Of a stretch of 64,000 nt of DNA, positions 947 through 64,000 are shown in pieces. The position numbers and the translations under genes were made by a program. The DNA lies in NCBI GenBank assembly GCA_037143335.1, contig JBAWZA010000001.1, forward strand, positions 109,253 through 173,252, read 5' to 3'. The notes under the pieces were generated by a model. The model ran no database searches. It was not told where the DNA came from and saw only the letters and a list, made by a program, of their open reading frames with translations. The stretch comes from a bacterium. Its GTDB lineage: Bacteria; Bacteroidota; Ignavibacteria; Palsa-1295. Positions within the stretch are counted from its first letter, which is position 1. The number at the start of each line of letters is the position of its first letter.

Positions 947-2192
947 AACTTTTTCTCGTTCGAATGATCGTCCGATCAGACGTAGCTCAGATTCACGTCC
1001 GAGGGATGCTTCGGCAGGTCCGCGAAAGAAAATCGACTTGCCACAAAGCTCCGAACCGTTTCGCCGTCCCGTAGGCAGACCACGCCGAGATGATTCAAGT
1101 GCGCCAAGTTTTCGCGCAAGACCAGCTTTTGGCGGGCGACCAAGATCAGATTCGCCTCGCTCGTCATCAGCACGACCTTTTCCAGCAAGGGGTTCTTCAT
1201 CAAGACCAGGCTCGTCGAGACCATCGTCATCGAGGCCGTTTTCATCTCGTCCACCATCATCACGCCCTTCGCGTCCATTTTCACCGCGAACAAGCGATAG
1301 CACAACTCCTCGGAAGCGGATAACGCTTGCACCTACAACTGGCAAAAGCTTTGATGCAAAACCGCGACCAATCAGAAAAACATCTAGCGGTGGAGTTGTA
1401 AAACCTTCGCTAAAAAATAAAGTCATCACCGCGGCGAAGCCGGTAAAAGATACCGTTCGATTGAATCGCTTCATTGCGTCGGCAGGAATTGCTGCCCGAA
1501 GAAAGGCAGATGAACTCATTACTCGCGGAAAAGTAACAGTCAATGGCAAAGTAATTCGCGAGCTTGGTGTCCAAGTGAATCCAAATACCGATCTTGTCAC
1601 CGTTGATGGTATGACCATCTCGATGAAGACGAAGTTTATTTATCTGCTCTTGAATAAACCGAAGGATACGATCACGACTGTCAAAGATGAGATCGATAGA
1701 AATACGGTCATGAATTATGTGGATACTCACGAGCGAGTCTATCCCGTCGGCAGGCTCGATAGAAATACTACCGGAGTCTTGCTCCTCACCAACGATGGCG
1801 ACCTCACGCAACGCCTCACGCATCCAAGTTACGAGATCAGGAGAGAGTATCACGTCACGCTCGATAAACCGCTGAAAAAAGATGACGCGCAAAAAATTGC
1901 TGTTGGCGGAATTGATCTTGGCGATGGCGAGATCTCTCCAGCAGTCCACCTTGCTTACGCCGAGCGTGACGCCAAAGATGTCATGCTCACGCTTCGTGAA
2001 GGCAAGTACCGCGAAGTCCGCAGAATTTTCGAAACCACAGGCTATGACGTTCGCAAACTTGATCGCACCATGTTCGCCGGTATCACCCACCGAGGCATGA
2101 AGCGCGGCGAGTCCAGAGTTCTAACCCCAAGAGAAGTGCGAGAGTTAAAAAAGATGGTCGGGCTTGATGTAGGGGAGAAGTTTGATTATTAG
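825..2192 (+). CDS. rluB: 23S rRNA pseudouridine synthase, RluB/RsuA family, with S4 domain; long Arg/Ser/Pro-rich N-terminal extension
   Basis: There is an S4 RNA-binding segment (RLNRFIASAGIAARRKADELITRGKVTVNGK). The catalytic motif VYPVGRLDRNTTGVLLLTNDGDL matches the RsuA/RluB family. The ATG at 825 overlaps scpB by 122 nt, and the true start may be downstream (for example TTG near 1038). Confidence 0.85.
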   Translation: MAKKIQLPLTKSSPSPRKSNPKGLPKKKLTLSPTTGTAPRKTFSRSNDRPIRRSSDSRPRDASAGPRKKIDLPQSSEPFRRPVGRPRRDDSSAPSFRARPAFGGRPRSDSPRSSSARPFPARGSSSRPGSSRPSSSRPFSSRPPSSRPSRPFSPRTSDSTTPRKRITLAPTTGKSFDAKPRPIRKTSSGGVVKPSLKNKVITAAKPVKDTVRLNRFIASAGIAARRKADELITRGKVTVNGKVIRELGVQVNPNTDLVTVDGMTISMKTKFIYLLLNKPKDTITTVKDEIDRNTVMNYVDTHERVYPVGRLDRNTTGVLLLTNDGDLTQRLTHPSYEIRREYHVTLDKPLKKDDAQKIAVGGIDLGDGEISPAVHLAYAERDAKDVMLTLREGKYREVRRIFETTGYDVRKLDRTMFAGITHRGMKRGESRVLTPREVRELKKMVGLDVGEKFDY

Positions 2193-2209
2193 ATTTTATG
2201 ATACTAAAA

Positions 2210-2623
2210 TCACTCGGAATGAGCTTCAATAAACTCCGAAGGACTGATAATATTTATACCACGATAGGGATTCATATCTAAAAGATCACCATCGCCGCTG
2301 ATGATAAGGGTTGCTCTACCATCAATGGCAAGTTCGAGAAATTTGTTATCCTTCGCATCGGGACAATCGGTAATCCGAGAAGTTGTTTCGATTTCAACAG
2401 CCATTACGATTAGACGACGAAAAAAATAGATACGATCCTGGACATGTACATATTTGTCTAACTTTGGACGAAGAAGTACTTCCTCAATTTCTTTCACTGT
2501 CTCCGGAGAAATCAAAAGAATAGAGTGGGAGTAAATATGATTAATAACTTTTCGGGGAGTTGAATGTTTCTTGAGCGTGGCGCTTACAATAACATTCGTA
2601 TCGACAACTATACGTTCAGGCAT
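2210..2623 (-). CDS. PIN-domain toxin of a type II toxin-antitoxin pair (putative TA-system PIN family)
   Basis: The N-terminal VVDTNVIVSA motif and the C-terminal segment DCPDAKDNKFLELAIDGRATLIISGDGDLL...GINIISPSEF are hallmarks of the PIN_3 / 'putative toxin-antitoxin system toxin component' family. The ATG at 2623 gives MPERIVVDTN. Confidence 0.8.
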   Translation of the reverse strand: MPERIVVDTNVIVSATLKKHSTPRKVINHIYSHSILLISPETVKEIEEVLLRPKLDKYVHVQDRIYFFRRLIVMAVEIETTSRITDCPDAKDNKFLELAIDGRATLIISGDGDLLDMNPYRGINIISPSEFIEAHSE

Positions 2624-2858
2624 CTTCGGCAAGAATTTCCTTCAGAATTTCGTCCGTCAATCCTTGCTTCTCTGCATAATCGCTCATCCGATCCATTACC
2701 TCTAGTAACGAGGGAGTATCCTTTTCCCGACTGCGTTCTTTCATGAGAATAGAAAAGAACGTTCCGAGTTTCATTTTCTCCTCCTTCGACGCGGACTGGT
2801 ATGCTAATGCTGCCGAAGCATCAACTCGAAGAGTTATATTTTGCGTATTTCCTTGCAT
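2616..2858 (-). CDS. Putative antitoxin (ribbon-helix-helix-like) cognate to the PIN toxin
   Basis: This is a small ORF directly upstream of the PIN gene on the same strand, with an 8-nt overlap. A beta-strand-like NITLRVD is followed by helical segments. The start was chosen at the internal Met (MQGNTQNITL). Confidence 0.5.
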   Translation of the reverse strand: MQGNTQNITLRVDASAALAYQSASKEEKMKLGTFFSILMKERSREKDTPSLLEVMDRMSDYAEKQGLTDEILKEILAEDA

Positions 2859-2894
2859 ACAATTCCTAACAAAAGTCCAGTTGTAATGTTTCCT

Positions 2895-3001
2895 CCCACC
2901 GAGGCATGAAACGCGGCGAGACCAGGGTCCTAACCCCAAGAGAAGTGCGGGAGTTGAAGTGGTTGGTGGGGCTGGATGTGGGGAGAAGTTTGATTATGAA
3001 A
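2895..3001 (+). pseudogene. Orphan duplicated fragment of the rluB 3' end (last ~35 codons), ~86% identical to 2086-2192
   Basis: The translated fragment (MKRGETRVLTPREVRELKWLVGLDVG) mirrors the RluB C-terminus (MKRGESRVLTPREVRELKKMVGLDVGEKFDY). No upstream catalytic domain is present. Confidence 0.65.
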
Positions 3002-3130
3002 CGATTAATGTTCCACTTAACAGATCAGAATAGGTTGAATGATGTGATGAAAGTTATCTCTGGTGAACATTGTTTATCTATACTGCAAATTACTGAAAAG
3101 AGATTTCACCGTTGTATCTAACCGTGCAGC

Positions 3131-4036
3131 TTATTTAACTTTAGCGAGCTTCCCGACTTTTTTCTCGATTGAAAGGATATTCTTTTCGAGGGAATCAAAC
3201 TTCTTTTTCATCTCTCTTTCAATTCTGGGGCGTGTACCTTTTTCATAACCGTAGGGAAAAGTTTTCTTAAATAGTTCAATACTACTTTGAACTAGCTTTT
3301 CGACTCCCTCGACCTTATCCTTTAAGGATGCAATTTCATGAATGTGCTTATCTAATTTTTCCTCAGTGAACTTAAACATGTTATCATTTTGCTTCAAAAT
3401 ATCTGCGTCTTGATATTGGTCATACCGCTCGACACCAATCTTCTTCCATCCACCGTCTTGCTTATTCTGTACACTACCACCGAACATACTTATAAGAAGT
3501 GCTTCAAGCAGATGTACTTCAGATGTAAAAGAAATCCCACTTGAGCCTCGGCCTATCGTCTTTCCCAATTCTTTTGTTTTACCCACTTTGCAAAAACCAA
3601 ACCACGAGAATTTATCCCATTTGTTCGCCAAATCATCAATATGGTGTTCCTTAAGTCTATCTCCTAAAACGCGTGCAGTAGGATCCTTCAAAGCTTCCTT
3701 CGGCTTTTTATCTGTGTTGGACTTTATCCCTATCTGGCCTACATAGATAGGCGAATAATTTTTGTATAGGACATAGATCCCTTTTTGGCCCCAGAAGTTT
3801 GGCAAACTATCAGCGTTGGGTGTCTTTCTTGCTTTATACTGATGGATTCTCCGTATCCCGAGAAGTTTTTTCCCGTTCCAATCGACGTATTCGGTTGACC
3901 AAAACAGTCCGAAATTTTGAACGTGCACACCAGATTTTACTGACTTATTACTTTTCTTGGGTTTTTGGGGCATATTAATAGAGACACGAAAATAATAGGA
4001 CATCACCGTTTCAAAGATAATTCCAATTACCTTCAC
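3131..4036 (-). CDS. GIY-YIG nuclease-domain protein with C-terminal coiled-coil region
   Basis: It has a GIYVLYKNYSPIYVGQ motif followed by conserved Arg/His (RLKEHH), Glu (LEALL) and Asn positions. The C-terminus is Lys/Glu-rich and heptad-like. Its GTG start overlaps the stop of the upstream AlbA_2 gene (GTGA). Confidence 0.72.
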   Translation of the reverse strand: MKVIGIIFETVMSYYFRVSINMPQKPKKSNKSVKSGVHVQNFGLFWSTEYVDWNGKKLLGIRRIHQYKARKTPNADSLPNFWGQKGIYVLYKNYSPIYVGQIGIKSNTDKKPKEALKDPTARVLGDRLKEHHIDDLANKWDKFSWFGFCKVGKTKELGKTIGRGSSGISFTSEVHLLEALLISMFGGSVQNKQDGGWKKIGVERYDQYQDADILKQNDNMFKFTEEKLDKHIHEIASLKDKVEGVEKLVQSSIELFKKTFPYGYEKGTRPRIEREMKKKFDSLEKNILSIEKKVGKLAKVK

Positions 4037-4743
4037 TCCCCCAACGTAAAATACTCTGGCGTCTCGGTATTGTGAAGTAAGATGGTCCCGGCGCGGACGA
4101 GGTCAACAAGAATTTTTGATGCGCGGCGGCGCGAGATGTTGACGAGGTCGGCGAATTCTTGAACCGTTATTTTCCCGTACTCTTCGAGATACTCGAAGAG
4201 TGTGCGCTCGTTGAATCCAATTGCAATTCGTAATGGCGGTGCGTCGGGTTGATTTGCGCGCATGACGTTCATCACTTCTTTCGAGGCTTGCATGGATTTA
4301 TCTTTGACTCTGACAAATCCGATGCGCGTCCCATTCGTCACCCTTCTTCCAGATGAATCATACTCAACAAGTGTGTGAGGCTTATGCGAACTTTGCTCGA
4401 CAGTTACGGCGATGATATCTGTATGACCGCCGAACGGAATAATATCGCACCGAATATCAATCGGAGGTTCGCAAAGGAATTGACTTACGTGTTCGATCTC
4501 ACTAATTTCCGATTTCTCGCTATCCAAACCATACACGCTTCCATCATCGTCAACCCCAAAAAGAATCGTCCCGCCTCTCGTATTTGCGAAAGCGATCATC
4601 TCTTTTGCAATTTTCTCAGGGGAGGAAAAATGTCTCTTAAATTCAACTTTCAATCCTTCGCCCTCAGCGATGAGCGCTATCGCGTCTTTGCGAGTCACTC
4701 GTTTGCCTGATGTGAGTTTCTCATCTAAAAATCCTTCGTACAT
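4033..4743 (-). CDS. AlbA_2 (Schlafen-like, 'divergent AAA/RecG-like') domain protein with C-terminal winged HTH
   Basis: The N-terminal segment (EGEGLKVEFKRHFSSPEKIAKEMIAFANTRGGTILFGVDDDGSVYGL) is typical of the PF04326 AlbA_2 family. The C-terminal segment LFEYLEEYGKITVQEFADLVNISRRRASKILVDLV looks like a wHTH. Confidence 0.72.
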   Translation of the reverse strand: MYEGFLDEKLTSGKRVTRKDAIALIAEGEGLKVEFKRHFSSPEKIAKEMIAFANTRGGTILFGVDDDGSVYGLDSEKSEISEIEHVSQFLCEPPIDIRCDIIPFGGHTDIIAVTVEQSSHKPHTLVEYDSSGRRVTNGTRIGFVRVKDKSMQASKEVMNVMRANQPDAPPLRIAIGFNERTLFEYLEEYGKITVQEFADLVNISRRRASKILVDLVRAGTILLHNTETPEYFTLGE

Positions 4744-33012: not shown

Positions 33013-33480
33013 ATGAAATTCTTTTATCTCATATTCTTAGCTCTATCGGTGTCTGGGTTGTATGGGCAGTCAGCAGGAGATAGAATACTTTCCCAATCCT
33101 CGGATAGAATTGTGCGAACGGGTAGTGCGAGCTATCAGAACACTCAGCAATACTTGACTCTGACTGTTCTAAACTCGAACCTCAGCGACAAAATCGTCCC
33201 TTATAATTCGGGAATAGCGAGCATTCCAATTGAAATCCTACCCAATGATACACCAATGTCTGAATCTCTGGTGACGAATTTCGTCAATGGAGTTTTCAAT
33301 CTCTCAACATCATACCAAATAGGAGCATTTGAGATTTCGGCGAACCTCTCAAATATCTTGGATATTTCTGCCAATGCCATTGAACCCGATGCCTTCAATA
33401 GGATATTTGGGGATGTTGGGCTTATCTACACGCCCGGAGTACCTCGCTCAGTGTGGCTTGGTATAGCTTGTCAATTTTAA
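33013..33480 (+). CDS. Hypothetical secreted protein
   Basis: It has a signal peptide. I do not recognise a family. Confidence 0.4.
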   Translation: MKFFYLIFLALSVSGLYGQSAGDRILSQSSDRIVRTGSASYQNTQQYLTLTVLNSNLSDKIVPYNSGIASIPIEILPNDTPMSESLVTNFVNGVFNLSTSYQIGAFEISANLSNILDISANAIEPDAFNRIFGDVGLIYTPGVPRSVWLGIACQF

Positions 33481-33566
33481 GAACCTGTTCCCCCGAACTC
33501 TTATCCCTTGCCTGCTGTTATTAGCGTCCCGAAAAAAAACGGGGAAATAACTTTAATTAAGACACT

Positions 33567-33818
33567 ATGCCGCAACATAAGGGCGCTGAACGCCGAGTAC
33601 GCTTATCTGAGAAACGTCGCATTGCCAATAAGGGCACAAAGATTGCTATGCGCAATCTATTCAAGGAATTTGATCCAGCCGCTCCGACTGCTGGTGATTC
33701 GCTCAAAAAGCTCCAATCTACACTCGATCGCTTAGCGAGAAAAGGGATCATCAAGAAGAATTTCGCCGCTAACAAGAAATCCAAATTAGCAAGATCCATC
33801 AAAAAAGTGACTGCGTAA
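33567..33818 (+). CDS. rpsT: 30S ribosomal protein S20
   Basis: HKGAERRVRLSEKRRIANK matches the S20 N-terminus. Confidence 0.9.
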   Translation: MPQHKGAERRVRLSEKRRIANKGTKIAMRNLFKEFDPAAPTAGDSLKKLQSTLDRLARKGIIKKNFAANKKSKLARSIKKVTA

Positions 33819-33870
33819 GCATCTCTCAATCGCTGAGAAGCTTTTAGCCTGTCCTCTGGATGGGCTTTTT

Positions 33871-34152
33871 TTATGCCCCGACTCTGGATTCCTGTCTGGC
33901 TTTGGCAACTTCGTCTTCGATTGCTTCGCGGAGGGCGGGGGCGATGAAGATGTTATCTAAGCCGAATTCGTGCAGACCGATGGCGAGGGTGCGCGTTTTG
34001 CGTGTGATGGTGGAGCGACGGTTGATGACGAGCATCTTTTCTTCGCGGAGCAGACAGTAGCCGCCTTCAAAATTACCAGTCTCGAAGCGGAGCTTCAGAC
34101 CCATTTCCGATGCAAGTGCTTTAAGAGATTCGAGAAGTTCTTCGCTTGTCAA
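33871..34152 (-). CDS. Hypothetical small protein (93 aa)
   Basis: It is an ORF of coding-like composition. I do not recognise a family. Confidence 0.45.
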   Translation of the reverse strand: MTSEELLESLKALASEMGLKLRFETGNFEGGYCLLREEKMLVINRRSTITRKTRTLAIGLHEFGLDNIFIAPALREAIEDEVAKARQESRVGA

Positions 34153-34184
34153 GTTAGTTGGTAGTGTTTATTCGTTTGCAGAGG

Positions 34185-34475
34185 TTAGGCTAATTTGCCT
34201 GTGGTATCAATTGTGATTCCGCCGTGATCAATGATGTGAAGCTGTTCGGTGATATGAGCAACGACATCGCTTATCGGAAGTGACTTCGGGTTGAAACGCG
34301 AGCGCGCCGCATCAACCGCTTCTTGTAGCGAGCCAAGTTCACCACGAAGATAGAGCCAAACATGATACCCTAAACGATTGCGATCGTTTGGTTCAACAGT
34401 TGGTACAGCACGAACAGATGCGTAGGCCTTTTCAGCAAGCTCAGTATCATGCGCTACGGTTACGTTAATGGACAT
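34185..34475 (-). CDS. Hypothetical small protein (96 aa)
   Basis: It is an ORF of coding-like composition. I do not recognise a family. Confidence 0.45.
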   Translation of the reverse strand: MSINVTVAHDTELAEKAYASVRAVPTVEPNDRNRLGYHVWLYLRGELGSLQEAVDAARSRFNPKSLPISDVVAHITEQLHIIDHGGITIDTTGKLA

Positions 34476-34489
34476 GTGCGTAAAGAAAA

Positions 34490-36466
34490 TTACTTCGTAA
34501 AAACAAATTGCCCCTTGGCTATTAACTTGTCATTCAACATAAGCAAGGCAAAATATGTCCCGCTCTCAAGCCCTTCGGTGCTAAAAAAATATTGGACTAA
34601 CTGTGTGCCACTATCCATTTTCTCCGATTCCGGCGTGATTTTTCGGACTTCATTTCCTTGAGTGTCATAGAGAAGTAATCTTGTTTGAGTATCCGAAGAG
34701 ATGCTCATCGCAGATGGCATAGCGTGCTGTGCGATCATGTGTGTAGCATTCGAGGGATTCGGCACGAACCGCAACTCTGGTATCTTCTCAGGTTCAAAAC
34801 TACTAATAGCTCCAAGTTTAACTGCTCCGTTCAATTTTTTAATAATTGCTCCATCTGGATCGAAGACGATACTATCTGGGATGAATGAGTTTTGGAAGGA
34901 TGCCTCACTTATCCGCAGAGTGTCAAGTAGAACTTCGTGTCGTTCCGATTTCCCACCAAACGTTCGCGCCTCCACAATGATAGGCTGACGGAAAAATCCG
35001 ATTCGCACTGAATCCTGTGTTTGCAACATCTGCAAGCGAACAGTCGAATCATGCTTTGACCATGTAACTGTGATTGCAGGGTGGCCGATTCCGAACATCC
35101 ACTCTGCAACGAAATATCTCAAATCGCGCATCAAGGTATCTTCTACGATACCTTGAAAATCTTCGGTTGTAGCATTGGAGTAAGCCGTGTACTTACCGTA
35201 CGCTCTGAGACCAGTAAAAAAATTTGCATCACCAAGTGTATATCGTAGCATTCCCAATACCGCAGCGCCTTTATTGTAAATAACAGGCGGATAGTTGTTG
35301 CGTGGGTGAGTGTAGTAGGGTGCACCGAATAGTGAGATCGTGTCTTGACCTTTTGTTAACGCGCTGGCGATATTCGAGTGCTGAGTTTGCCAATACGCCT
35401 TCTCCCCTGAAAACCGCTCCTGAAAAAGAGCTTCGCTATACGTTGCGAATCCCTCATTGAGCCAGGGTTCATTAAAATCAAAACAAGTTGTCTTATCTCC
35501 CCACCATTGATGGGCAAGTTCGTGAACAGCAGTGGTATTATTCGTATCCAAAACTGAATTGACGAGAGTGATCATTGTCTGATGCTCCATCGAGCCGATG
35601 GGCGCGATGACGTAACCGACTTTCTCGAAAGGATATTCACCAAAGAGCGAGTCGAAATAGACTAATGCTTTCACAACTCTCTTTTCCATCAAGGTACGTG
35701 CTTTTGCTGTATCTTTTGCAAAGGAATAGACATCGAATGGGATGTTGAGTGGATTCTTGATACTAAGTTTCTGGAATGGACCAAAAGCAAAGGTCAGCAA
35801 ATAGGTTGCGATTGGATGCGTGATTTTCCATTCATAAAAATTCGTCTTGCCACCGTCTGTGCCAGCTAAATATCCTGTGAGTAAACCATTAGATACGACA
35901 ATCCCAGAAGTATCAGCAAAAAAACGAAGCGTCACAGAATCAGCTTTATCATCGGGTTCATCAAAACATGGAAGCCAATGTCGTGTGCATGATACATACG
36001 GAGCATTAAATCCTACTCCCATCGCAAACATCATGTTCCCTTCGTTATGCACACCGCCCCATTTGTTTGTACCTTCCTCAACCATCCCTTTTCCGTGGTA
36101 ATAAGTTTTGACAGTGAAGTTTGAACCATTGTGGTATTGGCCAGGGAAGCCGACGACCTTATACATCCCGTCTGAGTCTGGGGTCAAGAATGTTGCAGGC
36201 GCATCGTCAACGAAGACACTGTCAATCTCAATGAATTTGGCATGTTGCACAATCTCGGTGATTTCGCCCATCGAAAGTACGTTCATCTCGACCCAACCGG
36301 AAATCGTATTTTGTTTCCGGTCAAGCCAAATCGTTGCTTTATAGGACTTAACATCATAGCTTTTCATCTGATTTAGCCGAACGAGCGGAGCAAGCTGTCC
36401 CTGTGATGTCTCCGAAAGAATCATCATTCCAACGAATGCAACCAAAATGTGTGAAAATCGTATCAT
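34490..36466 (-). CDS. M1-family zinc aminopeptidase with T9SS C-terminal sorting domain
   Basis: The HEXXH-(18)-E motif (VHELAHQWWGD...WLNEGFATY) is present. The C-terminus is a Por-type domain. Confidence 0.85.
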   Translation of the reverse strand: MIRFSHILVAFVGMMILSETSQGQLAPLVRLNQMKSYDVKSYKATIWLDRKQNTISGWVEMNVLSMGEITEIVQHAKFIEIDSVFVDDAPATFLTPDSDGMYKVVGFPGQYHNGSNFTVKTYYHGKGMVEEGTNKWGGVHNEGNMMFAMGVGFNAPYVSCTRHWLPCFDEPDDKADSVTLRFFADTSGIVVSNGLLTGYLAGTDGGKTNFYEWKITHPIATYLLTFAFGPFQKLSIKNPLNIPFDVYSFAKDTAKARTLMEKRVVKALVYFDSLFGEYPFEKVGYVIAPIGSMEHQTMITLVNSVLDTNNTTAVHELAHQWWGDKTTCFDFNEPWLNEGFATYSEALFQERFSGEKAYWQTQHSNIASALTKGQDTISLFGAPYYTHPRNNYPPVIYNKGAAVLGMLRYTLGDANFFTGLRAYGKYTAYSNATTEDFQGIVEDTLMRDLRYFVAEWMFGIGHPAITVTWSKHDSTVRLQMLQTQDSVRIGFFRQPIIVEARTFGGKSERHEVLLDTLRISEASFQNSFIPDSIVFDPDGAIIKKLNGAVKLGAISSFEPEKIPELRFVPNPSNATHMIAQHAMPSAMSISSDTQTRLLLYDTQGNEVRKITPESEKMDSGTQLVQYFFSTEGLESGTYFALLMLNDKLIAKGQFVFTK

Positions 36467-58344: not shown

Positions 58345-60096
58345 TTAAAAGCTAGTATAGAATTTTACTTGAAGATCAAATTGCGAAGGCTGGCCTACGC
58401 CGAGAGGGAAGATAGGTCCGGCAGTGACATCAACGCCAACCGAAGTCCCGACACCACCTGGTGTGGTCATAATGCCGAACGAAGGCGCCATGAGCGTAGC
58501 TGAGTGAATTCCACCTCGTGACGTTGGGCTTTCGGAAGAATAGATTCCGTAAAATCCTAAGCGGACAACGGGTTGAATCACGCCACCGAGTATACTAAGT
58601 GGCGACCATCCTAATTGTAAACCAAGCGATTTAGGAGAACTGAAAAAATTTGAGAAATTTGATGGTGCGTCATACGTAAGGTAAGGCCCACTTGCTGAAT
58701 AAAGCCATCCGTACGAAAGATCTAATGTTAGCGATGGCACGGCTGATTGAATCCCTATCATCAAGCTCGCACCAGAACTCTTACCAAAACCAAGTCCAAC
58801 TCTTCCACGAAGCCCAGAAATCACATTGGATTGACTTGCTTCCACTATCCGCTTCAGTTCTGCCTTCTCGTCGCGCTCCTTGTCAAGTGTCGCATTCAGG
58901 GTGGTTACCTTGCTTTCCGCAACCGTCTTTGCAATATTCAATGCGTACAACAGTTTTTGTGCGCTCTCTTTCTTTCCGCCAACTTCCAATGTGTCACTTG
59001 CAAGTGGGAATGAATTACGAACGATCATCGGCGATTTCTTTTCGAAGCTTTTTGTCTCCTCGAAAATAATTTTCCCAGATTCAATATCTTTTGCTTGCAA
59101 GCGGTACTGATATGTGCCGTCGAGGTTATGCTTCATATCATGCTCAGCAAGATAGTCTGCTGGGTGCATGACTGAATCAATAAGTGTGAGCGGATGCGCT
59201 GGATCGACGACGGAAAGCAGATCCAGCTTCACAGCACACGTCTTAGCAATCGTATAGCCAATGGAGAGCTTTGATGAAATAGATGAGATTGATGACTTGC
59301 CAAGATCGAAATGGAGCTTATCGCCGTTGAGTAAAATATCCTCTTTGATATGACGGGCGAAGTCTTCGTAGAAATTTAGCGTTTCGTTGTCATCGATCTT
59401 GAAGATGTAATGGTTATCAGATGGAGTGTTATCGAGGCTCAATCTGATTGGCTCCCCGGGACGCGTCGTAAATTCTTTTGCATATCGCTCGAACTTCTTT
59501 TCATCATCCGTACGATTGGATTCGACAGCGCGTTCGATCACGATATAATACCGAAGCGAATCACTCTTCGCATTCGGAATTCGTGGTAATGGCAGAATTC
59601 CGATATAGATCGAGTAGGATGCCAAGTCACCAATCGTAGCAAGCGGACTTACAAGTGGGAGTGCAAGTGGAGTGCGCGCTGAACCTGTGAAATACATCAC
59701 GGCTTGATGATTCGGCGGGGTGGAATCAGATGTATGCATCCGACCCTCCGGCGAGTAATTCATGTAATGGGGAACGAGGTGGAAGCTTGCTTCATGCAAA
59801 ACAACTTCACCTGTTGGTGCATCGGTACGTACGTAATTTGCTTCGAGGCGGAGTAATTCGGGTTCGAGATTCGAGCCGTATTTTGCGCGCTCTTGCTCAA
59901 GGCGCTCATGCATCAAATCGTCAATGGTCTTGATATACTCTTGCGGAGTCTTCGCGCGCAACGGCACATCAACTCTATATGGATTATCATGGACGGTTTG
60001 TGAAAAAACCGAACTAACAGTAACCATAACAAAAGCCACGAGCAGAATGACTCTGCCTGTGGCTCTTGTACGAGGTATGTGTTTCTCTGTATTCAC
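58345..60096 (-). CDS. Hypothetical outer-membrane protein with C-terminal beta-barrel-like region
   Basis: It has a signal peptide, a C-terminus with alternating hydrophobic residues, and a terminal Phe. Confidence 0.45.
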   Translation of the reverse strand: MNTEKHIPRTRATGRVILLVAFVMVTVSSVFSQTVHDNPYRVDVPLRAKTPQEYIKTIDDLMHERLEQERAKYGSNLEPELLRLEANYVRTDAPTGEVVLHEASFHLVPHYMNYSPEGRMHTSDSTPPNHQAVMYFTGSARTPLALPLVSPLATIGDLASYSIYIGILPLPRIPNAKSDSLRYYIVIERAVESNRTDDEKKFERYAKEFTTRPGEPIRLSLDNTPSDNHYIFKIDDNETLNFYEDFARHIKEDILLNGDKLHFDLGKSSISSISSKLSIGYTIAKTCAVKLDLLSVVDPAHPLTLIDSVMHPADYLAEHDMKHNLDGTYQYRLQAKDIESGKIIFEETKSFEKKSPMIVRNSFPLASDTLEVGGKKESAQKLLYALNIAKTVAESKVTTLNATLDKERDEKAELKRIVEASQSNVISGLRGRVGLGFGKSSGASLMIGIQSAVPSLTLDLSYGWLYSASGPYLTYDAPSNFSNFFSSPKSLGLQLGWSPLSILGGVIQPVVRLGFYGIYSSESPTSRGGIHSATLMAPSFGIMTTPGGVGTSVGVDVTAGPIFPLGVGQPSQFDLQVKFYTSF

Positions 60097-60171: not shown

Positions 60172-60927
60172 TTACATTTGGTCTGCCACTTTGTCCTGGT
60201 CGGTAACGGCTACAGCACGAGTCTCTTTGATAAGCTTAGCATACCGATGAGAAATCATGATGTCTGCTGGATCAACCTTTGTTTGCGTCTGTGGGGGCGC
60301 TTCGGCTACTGTGCTTGTGTTGACTGCAAAATCTGTTTTTGTTATTGATTGCTGAACTGGTGTCGCGGCTTGATGACGAACACTTGTGCCAACATTCGAA
60401 GTTAAATGTTGTGTCGCATTCAATGCTACATCATTCGAAGTAGTAGTTGTCGGAGCAACCGCTGCTGGCACTGACTGCGTAGGAGTTGAAACGCTTGGGG
60501 ATGTCGAGACAGGCACTTGCGTGATCATCTCGTTACGCACATTGAAATTAAACCAGACAGATACCGCCAGACCAGCGAGTACAAAACCCATTGCTGTACG
60601 CTTTGCCCAGAGATACTTGACATTGCGAACTGCCGTCACGAGCTTCTCAGATGCAATTGGTGCGCGAGCCGGAACAACTGCTGCTTTGCGGGCATCAGCC
60701 ATCGCACCAAGCAGAATGTTCTTTGTCTTACGATCAACTTCTTTCGAGAGCATAAATCTATTATCAACTCCAGAGCGTGCCATCGCTGAAGCCAAGATTT
60801 TGTACTCGGCAACTGCGCTTGCAAGTGTGGGGTTGGAGCGAAGCTCTTGCTCGAACTCTTGGGTTGCCGAGAGTTCGCCATCGAGATAGGCTACAATATG
60901 CTCATCTGTTATAATATGCTTTTTCAT
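60172..60927 (-). CDS. Anti-sigma factor (single TM, Ser/Thr/Pro-rich periplasmic tail)
   Basis: The N-terminus (DEHIVAYLDGELS) is typical of anti-sigma factors. It has a 4-nt overlap with the upstream ECF sigma gene. Confidence 0.55.
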   Translation of the reverse strand: MKKHIITDEHIVAYLDGELSATQEFEQELRSNPTLASAVAEYKILASAMARSGVDNRFMLSKEVDRKTKNILLGAMADARKAAVVPARAPIASEKLVTAVRNVKYLWAKRTAMGFVLAGLAVSVWFNFNVRNEMITQVPVSTSPSVSTPTQSVPAAVAPTTTTSNDVALNATQHLTSNVGTSVRHQAATPVQQSITKTDFAVNTSTVAEAPPQTQTKVDPADIMISHRYAKLIKETRAVAVTDQDKVADQM

Positions 60928-62126: not shown

Positions 62127-64000
62127 TTATGCAGCTCGGGAATACAGATGCTTCTGGAAGTCGAAAAAGACGTTGCGGATGGTCTCGACATTGCCAAGAT
62201 TGCGGACTGCATCAGCAGAGGAATGATATTTCAGATTCAATAGAACAGGAAGTTTTTCTTCATCCAATTCTTCGACTCCTTTTTCGGAGTATTTGGAAAT
62301 GACGAACTTGAGGAATTCGGAATGATTGTCATCCACTCCGGCAAAGATCTTATCGTTGACAAGCTTAACCCTTTCCACTCTGGAAATTTTCGGCGTGACG
62401 AAGGTAATATAACTCAACACATCGAGCAAGTCGCAATCTTCGGCATCGACCATCTTCTGCAATGCTTCCAGATTCTCTTTATTAAATCCTTGCTCGGAAA
62501 GTTTATCCAATAAATCTTTTCTCGTTTTAGGGACTGACCAAAGCTTCCGAAGTTCTTCTTCGGTCTTGCAATAGGCGGGCATAATGCCTATCATCGAATC
62601 CATAAATTCCTGAACGGACATCGGCTTACCGTCTGCGCTCCAGAAACTCGTCTGCATCATGTGCTGGATTTCGCGCTCTTTGCCGTCGCGAAGTTTGATT
62701 TTGATCTTTTTCTTTGGCTCCGGCCCGGGTTCAGGCCCCGGCTCTGGCGGAATGGGAGGGGGTTTCGGCTTTGGGATTCCGGGTTCTGTCGTCTCATCTA
62801 TCGGATCGCCATCCCATTCAGGATCGGCGAAGTGATGGTAGGCATCGACAAAATCAAAGATCGTAAAATATTCCTTGCCTTCGAAAAGCCTTGTTCCTCT
62901 GCCGATGATCTGTTTGAATTCGATCATAGAATTCACAGGGCGCATCAAGACGATATTCCGAATGTTCCTTGCATCGACACCGGTCGAGAGTTTTTGCGAA
63001 GTGGTAAGAATTGTGGGTACGGATTTTTCATTATCCTGGAAGTCTCTCAGAAATTGCTCGCCTCGCGCGCCGTCATCGGCAGTTACGCGCTCGCAGTATC
63101 CCGGATCGTGGCTTGTCTTGACTTGATTGATCAAATCTCTGAGGAGCAATGCATGTTTCTGCGTTGCTCCGAATACAAGAGCCTTATCATTCTGATCGCA
63201 TTCATTCATGAAGACCTCAACGCGTTTCCTCTCGCGTGCTTCGATCTCGATGGTGCGATTAAAATCTTTCTCTTCGTAAACCTTGCCTTCTTCTATTTCT
63301 CCTTCAACGACCTCGTCATCTGACGTATAAAAATATGTATCAAGTGTGGTTTGGATGCGGTGTACTTTGAAGGGCGTAAGGAAGCCGTCGTTGATTCCGG
63401 CTTTCAGCGAATAGGTATAGAGCGGTTCGCCGAAGTATTTATAGGTATCGACATTATCTTTTCTCTTCGGAGTTGCCGTGAGACCTAACTGCACTGCCGG
63501 AGAAAAATAATTCATGATATCGCGCCAGTTCGATTCATCGTTCGCGCCGCCGCGATGGCATTCGTCTATAATAATAAGATCGAAAAAATCCGGAGGGTAT
63601 GCGCCAAAATACGGTGTGTTCTCCGGTCCGCTCATGAAGGTCTGGAATATGGTGAAGAATATACTTCCTGACATCGGCAAGCCTTTCTTGCGGATTTCAT
63701 CGGGCTTGATGCGGACTTTCGCATCGTCAGTGAATGCACCAAATTCATTGAATGCCTGATCGGCAAGGATATTCCTATCGGCTAAGAATAAGATTCGCGG
63801 ACGTCGTGCACCGTCTCTATTCAAATTCCACCTCGCCTGAAAAAGCTTCCAGGCAATTTGAAATGCAATCGTTGTTTTGCCTGTGCCTGTTGCCAAAGTC
63901 AGTAGTAATCTCTGCTTCTCTTCGGCAATCGCATTAACCGTTTTGTTAATTGCAATCTCCTGATAGTAGCGCGGAGCACGTGTGCCTTCAAGAGGAATTT
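62127..64000 (-). CDS. hsdR: Type I restriction enzyme R subunit (HsdR), 5'-truncated by the window edge
   Basis: The helicase motifs Q (YYQEIAI, 63963-63983), I (ATGTGKT), II (DECHR) and III (LTATP) are present, plus an EcoEI-type C-terminal domain. The reading frame stays open to position 64000. Confidence 0.9.
   Translation of the reverse strand, partial: IPLEGTRAPRYYQEIAINKTVNAIAEEKQRLLLTLATGTGKTTIAFQIAWKLFQARWNLNRDGARRPRILFLADRNILADQAFNEFGAFTDDAKVRIKPDEIRKKGLPMSGSIFFTIFQTFMSGPENTPYFGAYPPDFFDLIIIDECHRGGANDESNWRDIMNYFSPAVQLGLTATPKRKDNVDTYKYFGEPLYTYSLKAGINDGFLTPFKVHRIQTTLDTYFYTSDDEVVEGEIEEGKVYEEKDFNRTIEIEARERKRVEVFMNECDQNDKALVFGATQKHALLLRDLINQVKTSHDPGYCERVTADDGARGEQFLRDFQDNEKSVPTILTTSQKLSTGVDARNIRNIVLMRPVNSMIEFKQIIGRGTRLFEGKEYFTIFDFVDAYHHFADPEWDGDPIDETTEPGIPKPKPPPIPPEPGPEPGPEPKKKIKIKLRDGKEREIQHMMQTSFWSADGKPMSVQEFMDSMIGIMPAYCKTEEELRKLWSVPKTRKDLLDKLSEQGFNKENLEALQKMVDAEDCDLLDVLSYITFVTPKISRVERVKLVNDKIFAGVDDNHSEFLKFVISKYSEKGVEELDEEKLPVLLNLKYHSSADAVRNLGNVETIRNVFFDFQKHLYSRAA

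Follow-up and report, generated by a model that had tools for sequence, protein, structure and literature searches.

A predicted toxin-antitoxin cassette between two copies of the rluB 3′ end in an uncultured member of the Ignavibacteria

Toxin-antitoxin (TA) gene pairs occur patchily in genomes, and the movement of those pairs that are located outside plasmids, phages, transposons and integrons is mostly unexplained. Genomic islands, integrative and mobilizable elements (IMEs) and cis-mobilizable elements (CIMEs) are integrated by site-specific recombinases in the 3′ ends of tRNA or housekeeping genes, such as ICESt1 and CIMEs at fda or SCCmec at rlmH/orfX. In the present study, a predicted TA gene pair located between two copies of the 3′ end of rluB, the gene of a 23S rRNA pseudouridine synthase, was analysed in a 64-kb stretch of contig JBAWZA010000001.1 from an uncultured member of the Ignavibacteria. 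This whole stretch of 64,000 nt is referred to as the window, and all positions are given relative to it unless a related locus is named. The duplication of the rluB end, empty sites in relatives, the recurrence of the gene pair at the same site, its horizontal movement, the interaction of the two repeats and the lack of a match to any recombinase family were observed. With moderate confidence, the locus is interpreted as a type II TA addiction cassette of approximately 0.8 kb whose insertion point lies 35 codons ahead of the rluB end, which is accompanied by a target duplication of 107 bp and which was spread by homologous recombination. As part of the same interpretation and with the same confidence, the cassette would combine a PIN_3 toxin with a small antitoxin and a 5′ region of its own and would presumably act by addiction.

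Insertion with long target duplication has been described for restriction-modification complexes, which are flanked by repeats of 30-500 bp, carry no mobility genes and have been recognised by means of empty-site genomes (Nobusato et al. 2000; Furuta, Abe & Kobayashi 2010, PMC2853133; summarised in PMC3874152). The locus analysed here resembles these insertions in that a small post-segregational-killing cassette is seen against an empty-site genome and the repeats align to a single-copy target, and further in that the repeat can overlap the 3′ end of a gene, a transposase or integrase is lacking and the insert deviates in its GC content (PMC2853133). It differs from them by its cargo, which is a PIN-type TA pair, by its repeats, which are ~86% identical and mosaic, and by the association of one cassette family with a particular gene end in different lineages. 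With an RNase-type TA pair as cargo, breakage of DNA by the cargo, the cause put forward for restriction-modification systems, is excluded here. By analogy, the comparison suggests that a footprint known for restriction-modification modules is present in a new setting, on an RNase-type TA pair. If the footprint applies to such a pair, insertion of this type would not require the cargo to cut DNA.

The minimal mobile elements of Neisseria (Saunders & Snyder 2002, as used in PMC1797815) are a second system of comparison. In these elements, alternative cassettes without mobility genes are found in different genomes at one syntenic site with conserved genes on either side, as is the case here, and their exchange is attributed to homologous recombination in the flanks. 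The minimal mobile elements need no internal repeat, whereas the duplicated gene end appears to be part of the unit at the present locus, and the hosts here are uncultured Bacteroidota/Ignavibacteriota-like bacteria. Exchange of the minimal-mobile-element type may be reflected at the locus by low-divergence tracts whose edges are located in rluB or in the repeat, and the rluB gene of one relative (L005) is itself a mosaic. With islands, IMEs and CIMEs, the locus shares the insertion at the 3′ end of a conserved gene (a gene of rRNA modification, as for SCCmec), the reconstituted gene end and the flanking direct repeats. It differs from them in that no recombinase is found here or at the site in relatives, in that the repeats are much longer and more diverged than typical att cores and in that the insert has a length of 0.7 kb. 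The gene pair resembles VapBC-like modules of the TIGR00305/PIN_3 type, since the PIN_3 match is well above the cut-off, the small upstream open reading frame (ORF) is coupled to the toxin gene in translation by an overlap of 8 nt and both genes are under purifying selection; unlike in these modules, the antitoxin matches no described family, and toxicity and neutralisation are predicted from sequence.

A description of a TA cassette with this footprint was not found by full-text searches of an open-access library, which is no proof of novelty. The locus represents a compact and bounded case, with empty sites, with another occupied site whose junctions are the same and with evidence of horizontal movement. 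Its main value is that of a clean and testable example of putatively recombinase-free movement of a TA cassette. Moreover, it provides a search rule for metagenomes, namely a gene-end duplication that brackets a small addiction module in combination with an empty site in a relative.

Duplicated rluB end and enclosed gene pair

The features of the locus are listed below by position in the window; related loci are designated by L or P and a number.

2086..2192, plus strand: repeat copy 1, the functional last 35 codons and TAG of rluB, in frame
2895..3001, plus strand: repeat copy 2, in which the rluB end is duplicated as non-coding DNA, with a TGA-derived stop and a DY ending
2210..2623, minus strand: gene of a PIN-domain toxin of 137 aa (PIN_3/TIGR00305); the ATG at 2623 matches the public gene call
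2616..2858, minus strand: antitoxin-like ORF of 80 aa that shares 8 nt with the start of the toxin gene
2193..2209, no strand assigned: spacer of 17 nt from the rluB stop codon to the PIN stop codon (convergent genes), equally long in the window, L004 and L005
2859..2894, minus strand: region 5′ of the antitoxin gene, presumed promoter/leader, 32/36 nt identical to L004
825..2192, plus strand: rluB, 23S rRNA pseudouridine synthase with the Pfam domains S4 and PseudoU_synth_2

The last 107 nt of rluB (2086-2192; 35 codons and TAG) are duplicated as a direct repeat at 2895-3001. By MAFFT alignment and with a repeat finder, positions 2086-2174 were paired with 2895-2983 at 85% identity over 89 ungapped nt, and a perfect block of 18/18 nt (2172-2189 and 2980-2997) was found at an offset of one base. 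A deletion of 1 nt between 2979 and 2980 shifts the frame of copy 2 relative to copy 1. In a gapped blastn comparison, copy 1 and copy 2 were 87.5% identical over 104 nt (E = 2.6e-31), and 8 of the 12 substitutions were located at third codon positions. The perfect blocks inside the repeat (16, 20 and 18 nt) coincide with strongly conserved codons and are therefore not diagnostic of an attL/attR crossover core. Copy 1 is separated from the PIN gene by 17 nt and the antitoxin ORF from copy 2 by 36 nt. The insert has a GC content of 0.38-0.42 compared to 0.45-0.53 in the flanks. Using blastn, a third repeat copy was detected neither in the 64-kb window nor in any fetched locus except L004. Both 107-nt repeats align at 74-77% to the single rluB ends of empty-site loci. 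A preliminary description of the window had reported a repeat of ~107 bp at the rluB end, with about 86% identity and mostly synonymous-like differences, and a PIN toxin gene and an RHH-like antitoxin gene between the copies. The repeat is real at these coordinates, the identity was measured as 85-88%, the share of third-position substitutions bears out the synonymous-like character, and the two genes were recovered on the minus strand at 2210-2623 and 2616-2858.

An assembly artefact was rejected as an explanation of this structure, because an independent assembly (L003, the Logan assembly of SRR12676966) shows 100% identity with the window across 10.6 kb and because L004, an unrelated contig from a metagenome of the Joint Genome Institute (JGI), has the same layout with the same repeat spacing of 809 nt.

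The toxin scored 73.7 bits against PIN_3 (cut-off 27) and 82.3 bits against TIGR00305 (cut-off 29.15), and the motifs DTN, DNKFLELA and GDxDLL are retained in the window PIN protein and in 13/13 relatives compared. Plasmid relatives of the toxin are annotated as toxins of TA systems. Orthologues of the antitoxin-like ORF are present upstream of the PIN gene in L004, L005, L011 and L013. The ratio of nonsynonymous to synonymous divergence (dN/dS) between the window and L004 is 0.19 for the PIN gene and 0.07 for the antitoxin-like ORF, which indicates purifying selection on both. No family match was obtained for the antitoxin-like ORF in Pfam, NCBIfam, PADLOC or the sequences of the PDB. A single-sequence AlphaFold model with a predicted local distance difference test (pLDDT) score of 58 had helices at 14-22 and 25-44 after an unmodelled N-terminus and was too poor for a fold search, so the ribbon-helix-helix (RHH) label given to this protein earlier was not confirmed. 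The gene pair is predicted to be a type II TA module with a VapC-like PIN toxin.

The cassette has a conserved 5′ edge, which in the window, L004 and L011 is marked by the motif GGAAACATT (minus strand, 2885-2893). A scan of the region 1900-4200 for sigma-70 promoters and terminators gave nothing above shuffle expectation, and no sigma-70-like promoter was found in copy 2. Within the cassette and beside it, a single inverted repeat was found, a short palindrome of 20 nt in the PIN gene (2489-2520). An integron gene cassette was considered and rejected, since there is no attC at the cassette end and no integrase.

State of the site in relatives and horizontal movement

Relatives of the locus were found by a metagenome scan and by protein-index look-ups; a RluB scan of genome contigs returned distant relatives only (38-41%), and no empty site was obtained from that scan. 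The closest RluB proteins belong to metagenome-assembled genomes (MAGs) of uncultured 'Bacteroidota', 'Ignavibacteriota' and 'Kapabacteria', and the homologues of rluB are named pseudouridine synthase or 23S rRNA pseudouridine2605 synthase. Clean empty sites were found in L008, L009 and L010 (three NCBI MAGs with a spacer of 16 nt), in L015 (85 nt) and in L016 (2 nt), and the 1-Mb JGI contig of P0013 has an empty site too, as judged by its gene list. At these sites, a single rluB end is followed by AlbA_2, NHL, DUF5683, RidA and ParB genes, which is the synteny of the window minus its inserts, and the stop codon of the AlbA_2 gene is located 2-85 nt past that of rluB. The ancestral order as derived from the relatives is rluB, a convergent gene with AlbA_2 and winged helix-turn-helix (wHTH) domains, and then NHL, DUF5683, RidA, ParB and ParA. 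Two further features of the window belong to this junction:

4033..4743, minus strand: AlbA_2 (Schlafen-like) and winged-helix gene, the native neighbour downstream of rluB
3131..3973 or 3131..4036, minus strand: second insert, a GIY-YIG-like ORF of 280-301 aa between copy 2 and the AlbA_2 gene, with a GC content of 0.35-0.42

Because the GIY-YIG-like ORF in the window is a separate second insert, the AlbA_2/wHTH gene (4033-4743) is taken as the native neighbour in agreement with the empty-site relatives, in place of the GIY-YIG gene or the NHL gene that had been proposed for this position.

The TA pair is located directly 3′ of rluB in L004, L005, L013 and L011/L012. The proteins of L004 are 91% (RluB), 85% (PIN) and 90% (antitoxin) identical to those of the window, and those of L011/L012 are 76-78% (RluB) and 61% (PIN) identical. 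In L004, the repeats have the spacing of 809 nt known from the window, and the junction 'aatgtttcct | rluB end' is identical. Copy 2 of L004 (L004 2065-2172) keeps an open frame and reads ...GGKFDY-TGA. The minimal 0.8-kb form is conserved between both lineages that have it. Past copy 2, the window and L004 are unrelated (45% identity); at the contig end of L004 (2266-2303), an ORF starts with MSKITYDESFKR, a short stretch that may be similar to the N-terminus of OrfA transposases (IS3 family). L011 contains the cassette with the same GGAAACATT edge and without a significant relic of copy 2, the best matches of 7-9 nt being equalled or beaten by 33-279 of 500 shuffles. The contigs of L005 and L013 stop inside the antitoxin gene.

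Other cargo was present at the site as well. P0002 carries a gene for a 388-aa Por_Secre_tail protein, and in L011 a gene for a 719-aa BNR/Por_Secre_tail protein is located beside the TA pair. In L017, an island of ~3.6 kb (L017 2744-6160) with five ORFs without Pfam match lies between rluB and AlbA_2; it contains neither a PIN pair nor a rluB-end repeat. An ORF of 73 aa in L017 (5935-6156) is a candidate HicB-like gene when read from its sequence. By blastn, no flanking rluB-end copies were found around the other cargoes of L017 and L011. In L006 (5570-5611) and L007 (3795-3835), with RluB identities of ~92%, unrelated sequence (…EIGFTKYEKN*) takes the place of the last 7 rluB codons after GGGCTGGATG, and other genes are located downstream (a 190-aa ORF and TPR genes). 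The breakpoint of L006/L007 constitutes another rearrangement within the same 107-nt segment.

Across the relatives, at least six site states were observed between rluB and AlbA_2, and the convergent rluB/AlbA_2 junction is a hypervariable hotspot in this Bacteroidota/Ignavibacteriota-like clade. Site content varies among relatives, so the duplication is not a fixed feature with an invariant cassette. The preliminary description had read the duplication as the trace of an insertion at the 3′ end of rluB, and this is supported by the empty sites, which were found in four or five independent relatives. The check it had proposed, for occurrences of the pair elsewhere with flanking rluB-end repeats, was partly positive: the pair was found at the same site in four other lineages and with repeats in L004, and L011 has it without copy 2.

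Cassette-bearing and cassette-free genomes are interleaved in both groups of RluB proteins, i.e. in group A (window, L004, L006 and P0002, with L005, L008 and P0013 nearby) and in group B (L013, L015, L016, L017 and others, with L011 further out). RluB of L013, which has the pair, is 94-96% identical to RluB of L015, L016 and L017, which are all without it. The similarities of PIN and RluB are discordant, with 88% (PIN) and 86% (RluB) identity between L005 and L013 and 59% (PIN) and 88% (RluB) identity between L005 and the window. For the window versus L004, synonymous divergence (dS) amounts to 2.5-3.5 for rluB (saturated), 0.48 for the PIN gene and 0.65 for the antitoxin gene. Third positions are identical at 102/220 sites (46%) in rluB and at 159/215 sites (74%) in the TA genes (Fisher p = 4e-9), and four-fold sites at 36/100 and 51/76, respectively. 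Since dS of the TA genes is below the rluB value by a factor of 4-5 and PIN similarity does not run parallel to RluB similarity, the cassette, as judged by these divergences, is younger than its hosts and has moved horizontally. In this respect, the earlier idea of a small mobilised TA cassette is supported.

Similarity between the window and L004 is high from ~2265 to the stop-codon position of copy 2 at ~3001. Outside of this segment, the 17-nt spacer (10/17 nt identical) and the PIN C-terminus are conserved at about the level expected of unconstrained sites with such divergence. A second tract was found between L005 and L013. The rluB bodies of these loci differ at 31% of positions (dS 1.25) and the last 107 nt of rluB at 9% (dS 0.45; Fisher p = 1.5e-5 versus the body), and the low divergence runs on into the PIN gene (dS 0.57). 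The best breakpoints are located 133 to 73 nt before the end of the stop codon and bracket the left edge of the repeat at 107 nt. This edge falls within the nucleotide block that is best conserved across the region (codons MFAGITHRGMKRG), in which recombination between such diverged sequences would be expected to resolve. The rluB gene of L005 (37-804) is a mosaic, as its 5′ third is nearer to group B, its middle nearer to group A and its end nearer to L013, which suggests frequent homologous exchange among these lineages.

Proposed mechanism and alternative explanations

In the favoured interpretation, the upstream copy would keep rluB intact and the downstream copy would represent a non-coding duplicate just 5′ of the TA operon. 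A dedicated recombinase would not be involved; instead, ordinary homologous recombination would carry the cassette and the downstream repeat between related lineages. The left arm would be provided by the rluB body or copy 1 and the right arm by copy 2, which would match the rluB end of the recipient whatever hypervariable DNA is located downstream. Alternatively, a single crossover of a circularised fragment consisting of the rluB end and the TA genes would give the same product. The repeats would convert each other and could delete the cassette, by which they could contribute to the empty sites, and toxin addiction would counter-select loss of the cassette.

Interaction of the repeats was apparent when the copies of the window and L004 were compared. 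Copy 2 of the window and both copies of L004 are 86-90% identical to each other, and copy 1 of the window is the outlier with 80-86%. The site patterns of the four copies are star-like, with three concerted sites, two orthologous sites (both at the extreme edges) and one cross site, and this analysis gave no decision on which copy is 'native'. Copy 1 of the window has nine private changes, six of which are clustered at repeat positions 57-81 and are mostly synonymous; its flanks outside of these positions match the shared repeat type. Such a patch would be expected if it belonged to the window lineage's own rluB and the flanks had been converted to the shared type. The ending ...FDY is found in copy 1 and copy 2 of the window and in copy 2 of L004, and ...F(D/E)F in copy 1 of L004 and in all other relatives. 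The copies 2 of the window and L004 have the DY ending, the TGA stop codon and the junction in common. Taken at face value, these patterns indicate that copy 2 travels with the cassette and that copy 1 of the window is a mosaic, and the earlier assignment of one copy as element-borne and the other as the displaced native end fails on the star-like relationship of the copies, on this mosaic and on the co-travelling copy 2.

Several points weigh against the recombination of a cassette with its repeat as proposed here. The mechanism is derived from patterns in the DNA, and no excision product, circle or transfer was observed. Copy 2 was seen in two lineages only (window and L004), and the cassette of L011 is without a significant copy-2 relic, so that the repeat may be no general trait of this cassette family. 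A recombinase encoded elsewhere in the genome may act in trans, and any natural competence of these uncultured hosts is hypothetical. The poorly conserved 17-nt spacer and PIN 3′ end fit neutral decay and blur the left limit of the tract shared with L004. The correspondence of the L005 tract edge to the repeat edge is imprecise (+/- ~30 nt), because rluB of L005 is itself mosaic.

Conservation of copy 2 exceeds the neutral level. Between the window and L004, 91/106 positions of copy 2 are identical compared to 67% of a neutral proxy (51/76 four-fold sites of the TA genes; p = 9e-6), and candidate causes that may account for this are conversion by the selected copy 1, recent exchange, regulation of the operon and selection for recombination competence. 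It is conceivable, though doubtful, that copy 2 has been retained for a function of its own, as a promoter or UP element of the TA genes, an antitoxin operator, a 5′ leader or a coding sequence. Its location on the operon's coding strand directly 5′ of the antitoxin gene, the conservation of the adjoining 36 nt (32/36) and the open frame with stop codon in L004 would fit such a role, but the window copy is frameshifted, the promoter scan found no sigma-70-like promoter in copy 2, and gene conversion by the selected copy 1 or more recent exchange could also conserve it. Moreover, the TA operon does not need copy 2, because L011 has the cassette with the GGAAACATT edge and without copy 2.

Tentatively, the proposal of homologous recombination may be taken a step further, to a cassette that would be a self-sufficient, recombinase-free mobile unit which brings its own right arm (copy 2) and can be installed by RecA-type recombination in any related genome with rluB. 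Element-level selection would then keep the arm gene-like, so that the conservation of copy 2 above neutral would be explained, and toxin addiction would protect the unit from repeat-mediated deletion.

In order to detect candidate mobility genes, the 59 ORFs of at least 110 aa in the 64-kb window were compared with Pfam, and no match to integrase, transposase, resolvase or relaxase families was obtained, in line with the preliminary description, which had seen no integrase or transposase. Recombinases are also not listed in the precomputed Pfam lists of ~12 related loci, including loci with other cargo, and the window gave no match to tRNA or Rfam models. A phage or plasmid vector was considered unlikely, since there was no phage match and the plasmid relatives of the PIN toxin are <46% identical. 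These results bear on the main competing, though rather unlikely, explanation that the locus derives, as remnant or satellite, from a CIME-type site-specific integrative element that brought a replacement 3′ end of rluB and whose tyrosine or serine recombinase was lost or is encoded elsewhere, with the repeats as attL and attR and mobilisation possible in trans. A duplicated gene 3′ end around an insert is the classic att footprint, the perfect blocks of 16/20/18 nt could hold a core, the foreign tract of L005 starts near the repeat position and the site is reused by several cargoes. On the other hand, besides the negative family searches, the other cargoes in L011 and L017 are without flanking rluB-end repeats, the repeats are long (107 bp) and only ~86% identical, and in the window and L004 it is copy 2 and not copy 1 that co-varies with the cassette, which is the reverse of the classical attL/attR assignment. 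No evidence was thus found in support of site-specific recombination or of the eroded integrative element suggested earlier, and no integrase is listed at the site in relatives.

An ancient, vertically inherited TA pair with a local tandem duplication of the rluB end, whose patchiness would be due to repeated loss, is very unlikely. The two RluB subclades both have members with the pair beside rluB, one of them being the distant L011 (RluB 76-78%), but the synonymous divergence of the TA genes is far below that of rluB in two independent pairs of loci, the PIN and RluB similarities disagree, and four site states are found among genomes with 94-96% identical RluB.

The GIY-YIG-like ORF belongs to a rare family with 44 homologues, one of which is named GIY-YIG nuclease. 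The ORF gave nothing above noise in Pfam, NCBIfam and PADLOC; a profile of the family matched Eco29kI (E 0.13) and UvrC (E 0.6) weakly, and its catalytic columns Y, Y/G, R, H, E and N are invariant. The ORF is absent from the empty-site relatives, and because it is absent from L004 and L011 it is not the mobility gene of the cassette. That it might be a free-standing homing endonuclease which cuts naive rluB ends and thereby co-converts the cassette and the repeat would agree with these weak matches, with the invariant catalytic columns, with the name of the one homologue and with its variable slot beside copy 2, but is highly improbable, since L004 has the cassette and copy 2 with unrelated DNA at the place of the gene and since L011, the other cassette locus with enough sequence, lacks the gene.

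Neighbouring genes and further observations

The first part of the rluB ORF (825-1460) encodes an N-terminal extension of ~200 aa, which is of low complexity and rich in Arg, Ser and Pro, and the ORF overlaps the 3′ end of scpB by 122 nt. The start codon of rluB is uncertain; the NCBI product has 243 aa, and the relatives P0003, P0004 and L017 (421-464 aa) keep a similar extension.

A second TA pair, consisting of a 76-aa ORF and a YafQ-family toxin gene, was found in L011 (13012-13527) at a distance of ~5 kb from the rluB site. It adjoins an ASH/Ig-domain gene, which also neighbours scpA in the contig of the window.

Further away from the cassette, a region of ~1 kb in the window (33480-34490) contains no ORF of at least 110 aa on either strand and no tRNA or Rfam match. 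At the edge of the window, an ORF on the minus strand (62127-63896) resembles the R subunit of type I restriction systems (ResIII, SWI2_SNF2 and EcoEI_R_C). Just upstream of it, two ORFs without family match (58345-60096 and 60172-60927) are found together with a sigma factor of the extracytoplasmic function (ECF) type.

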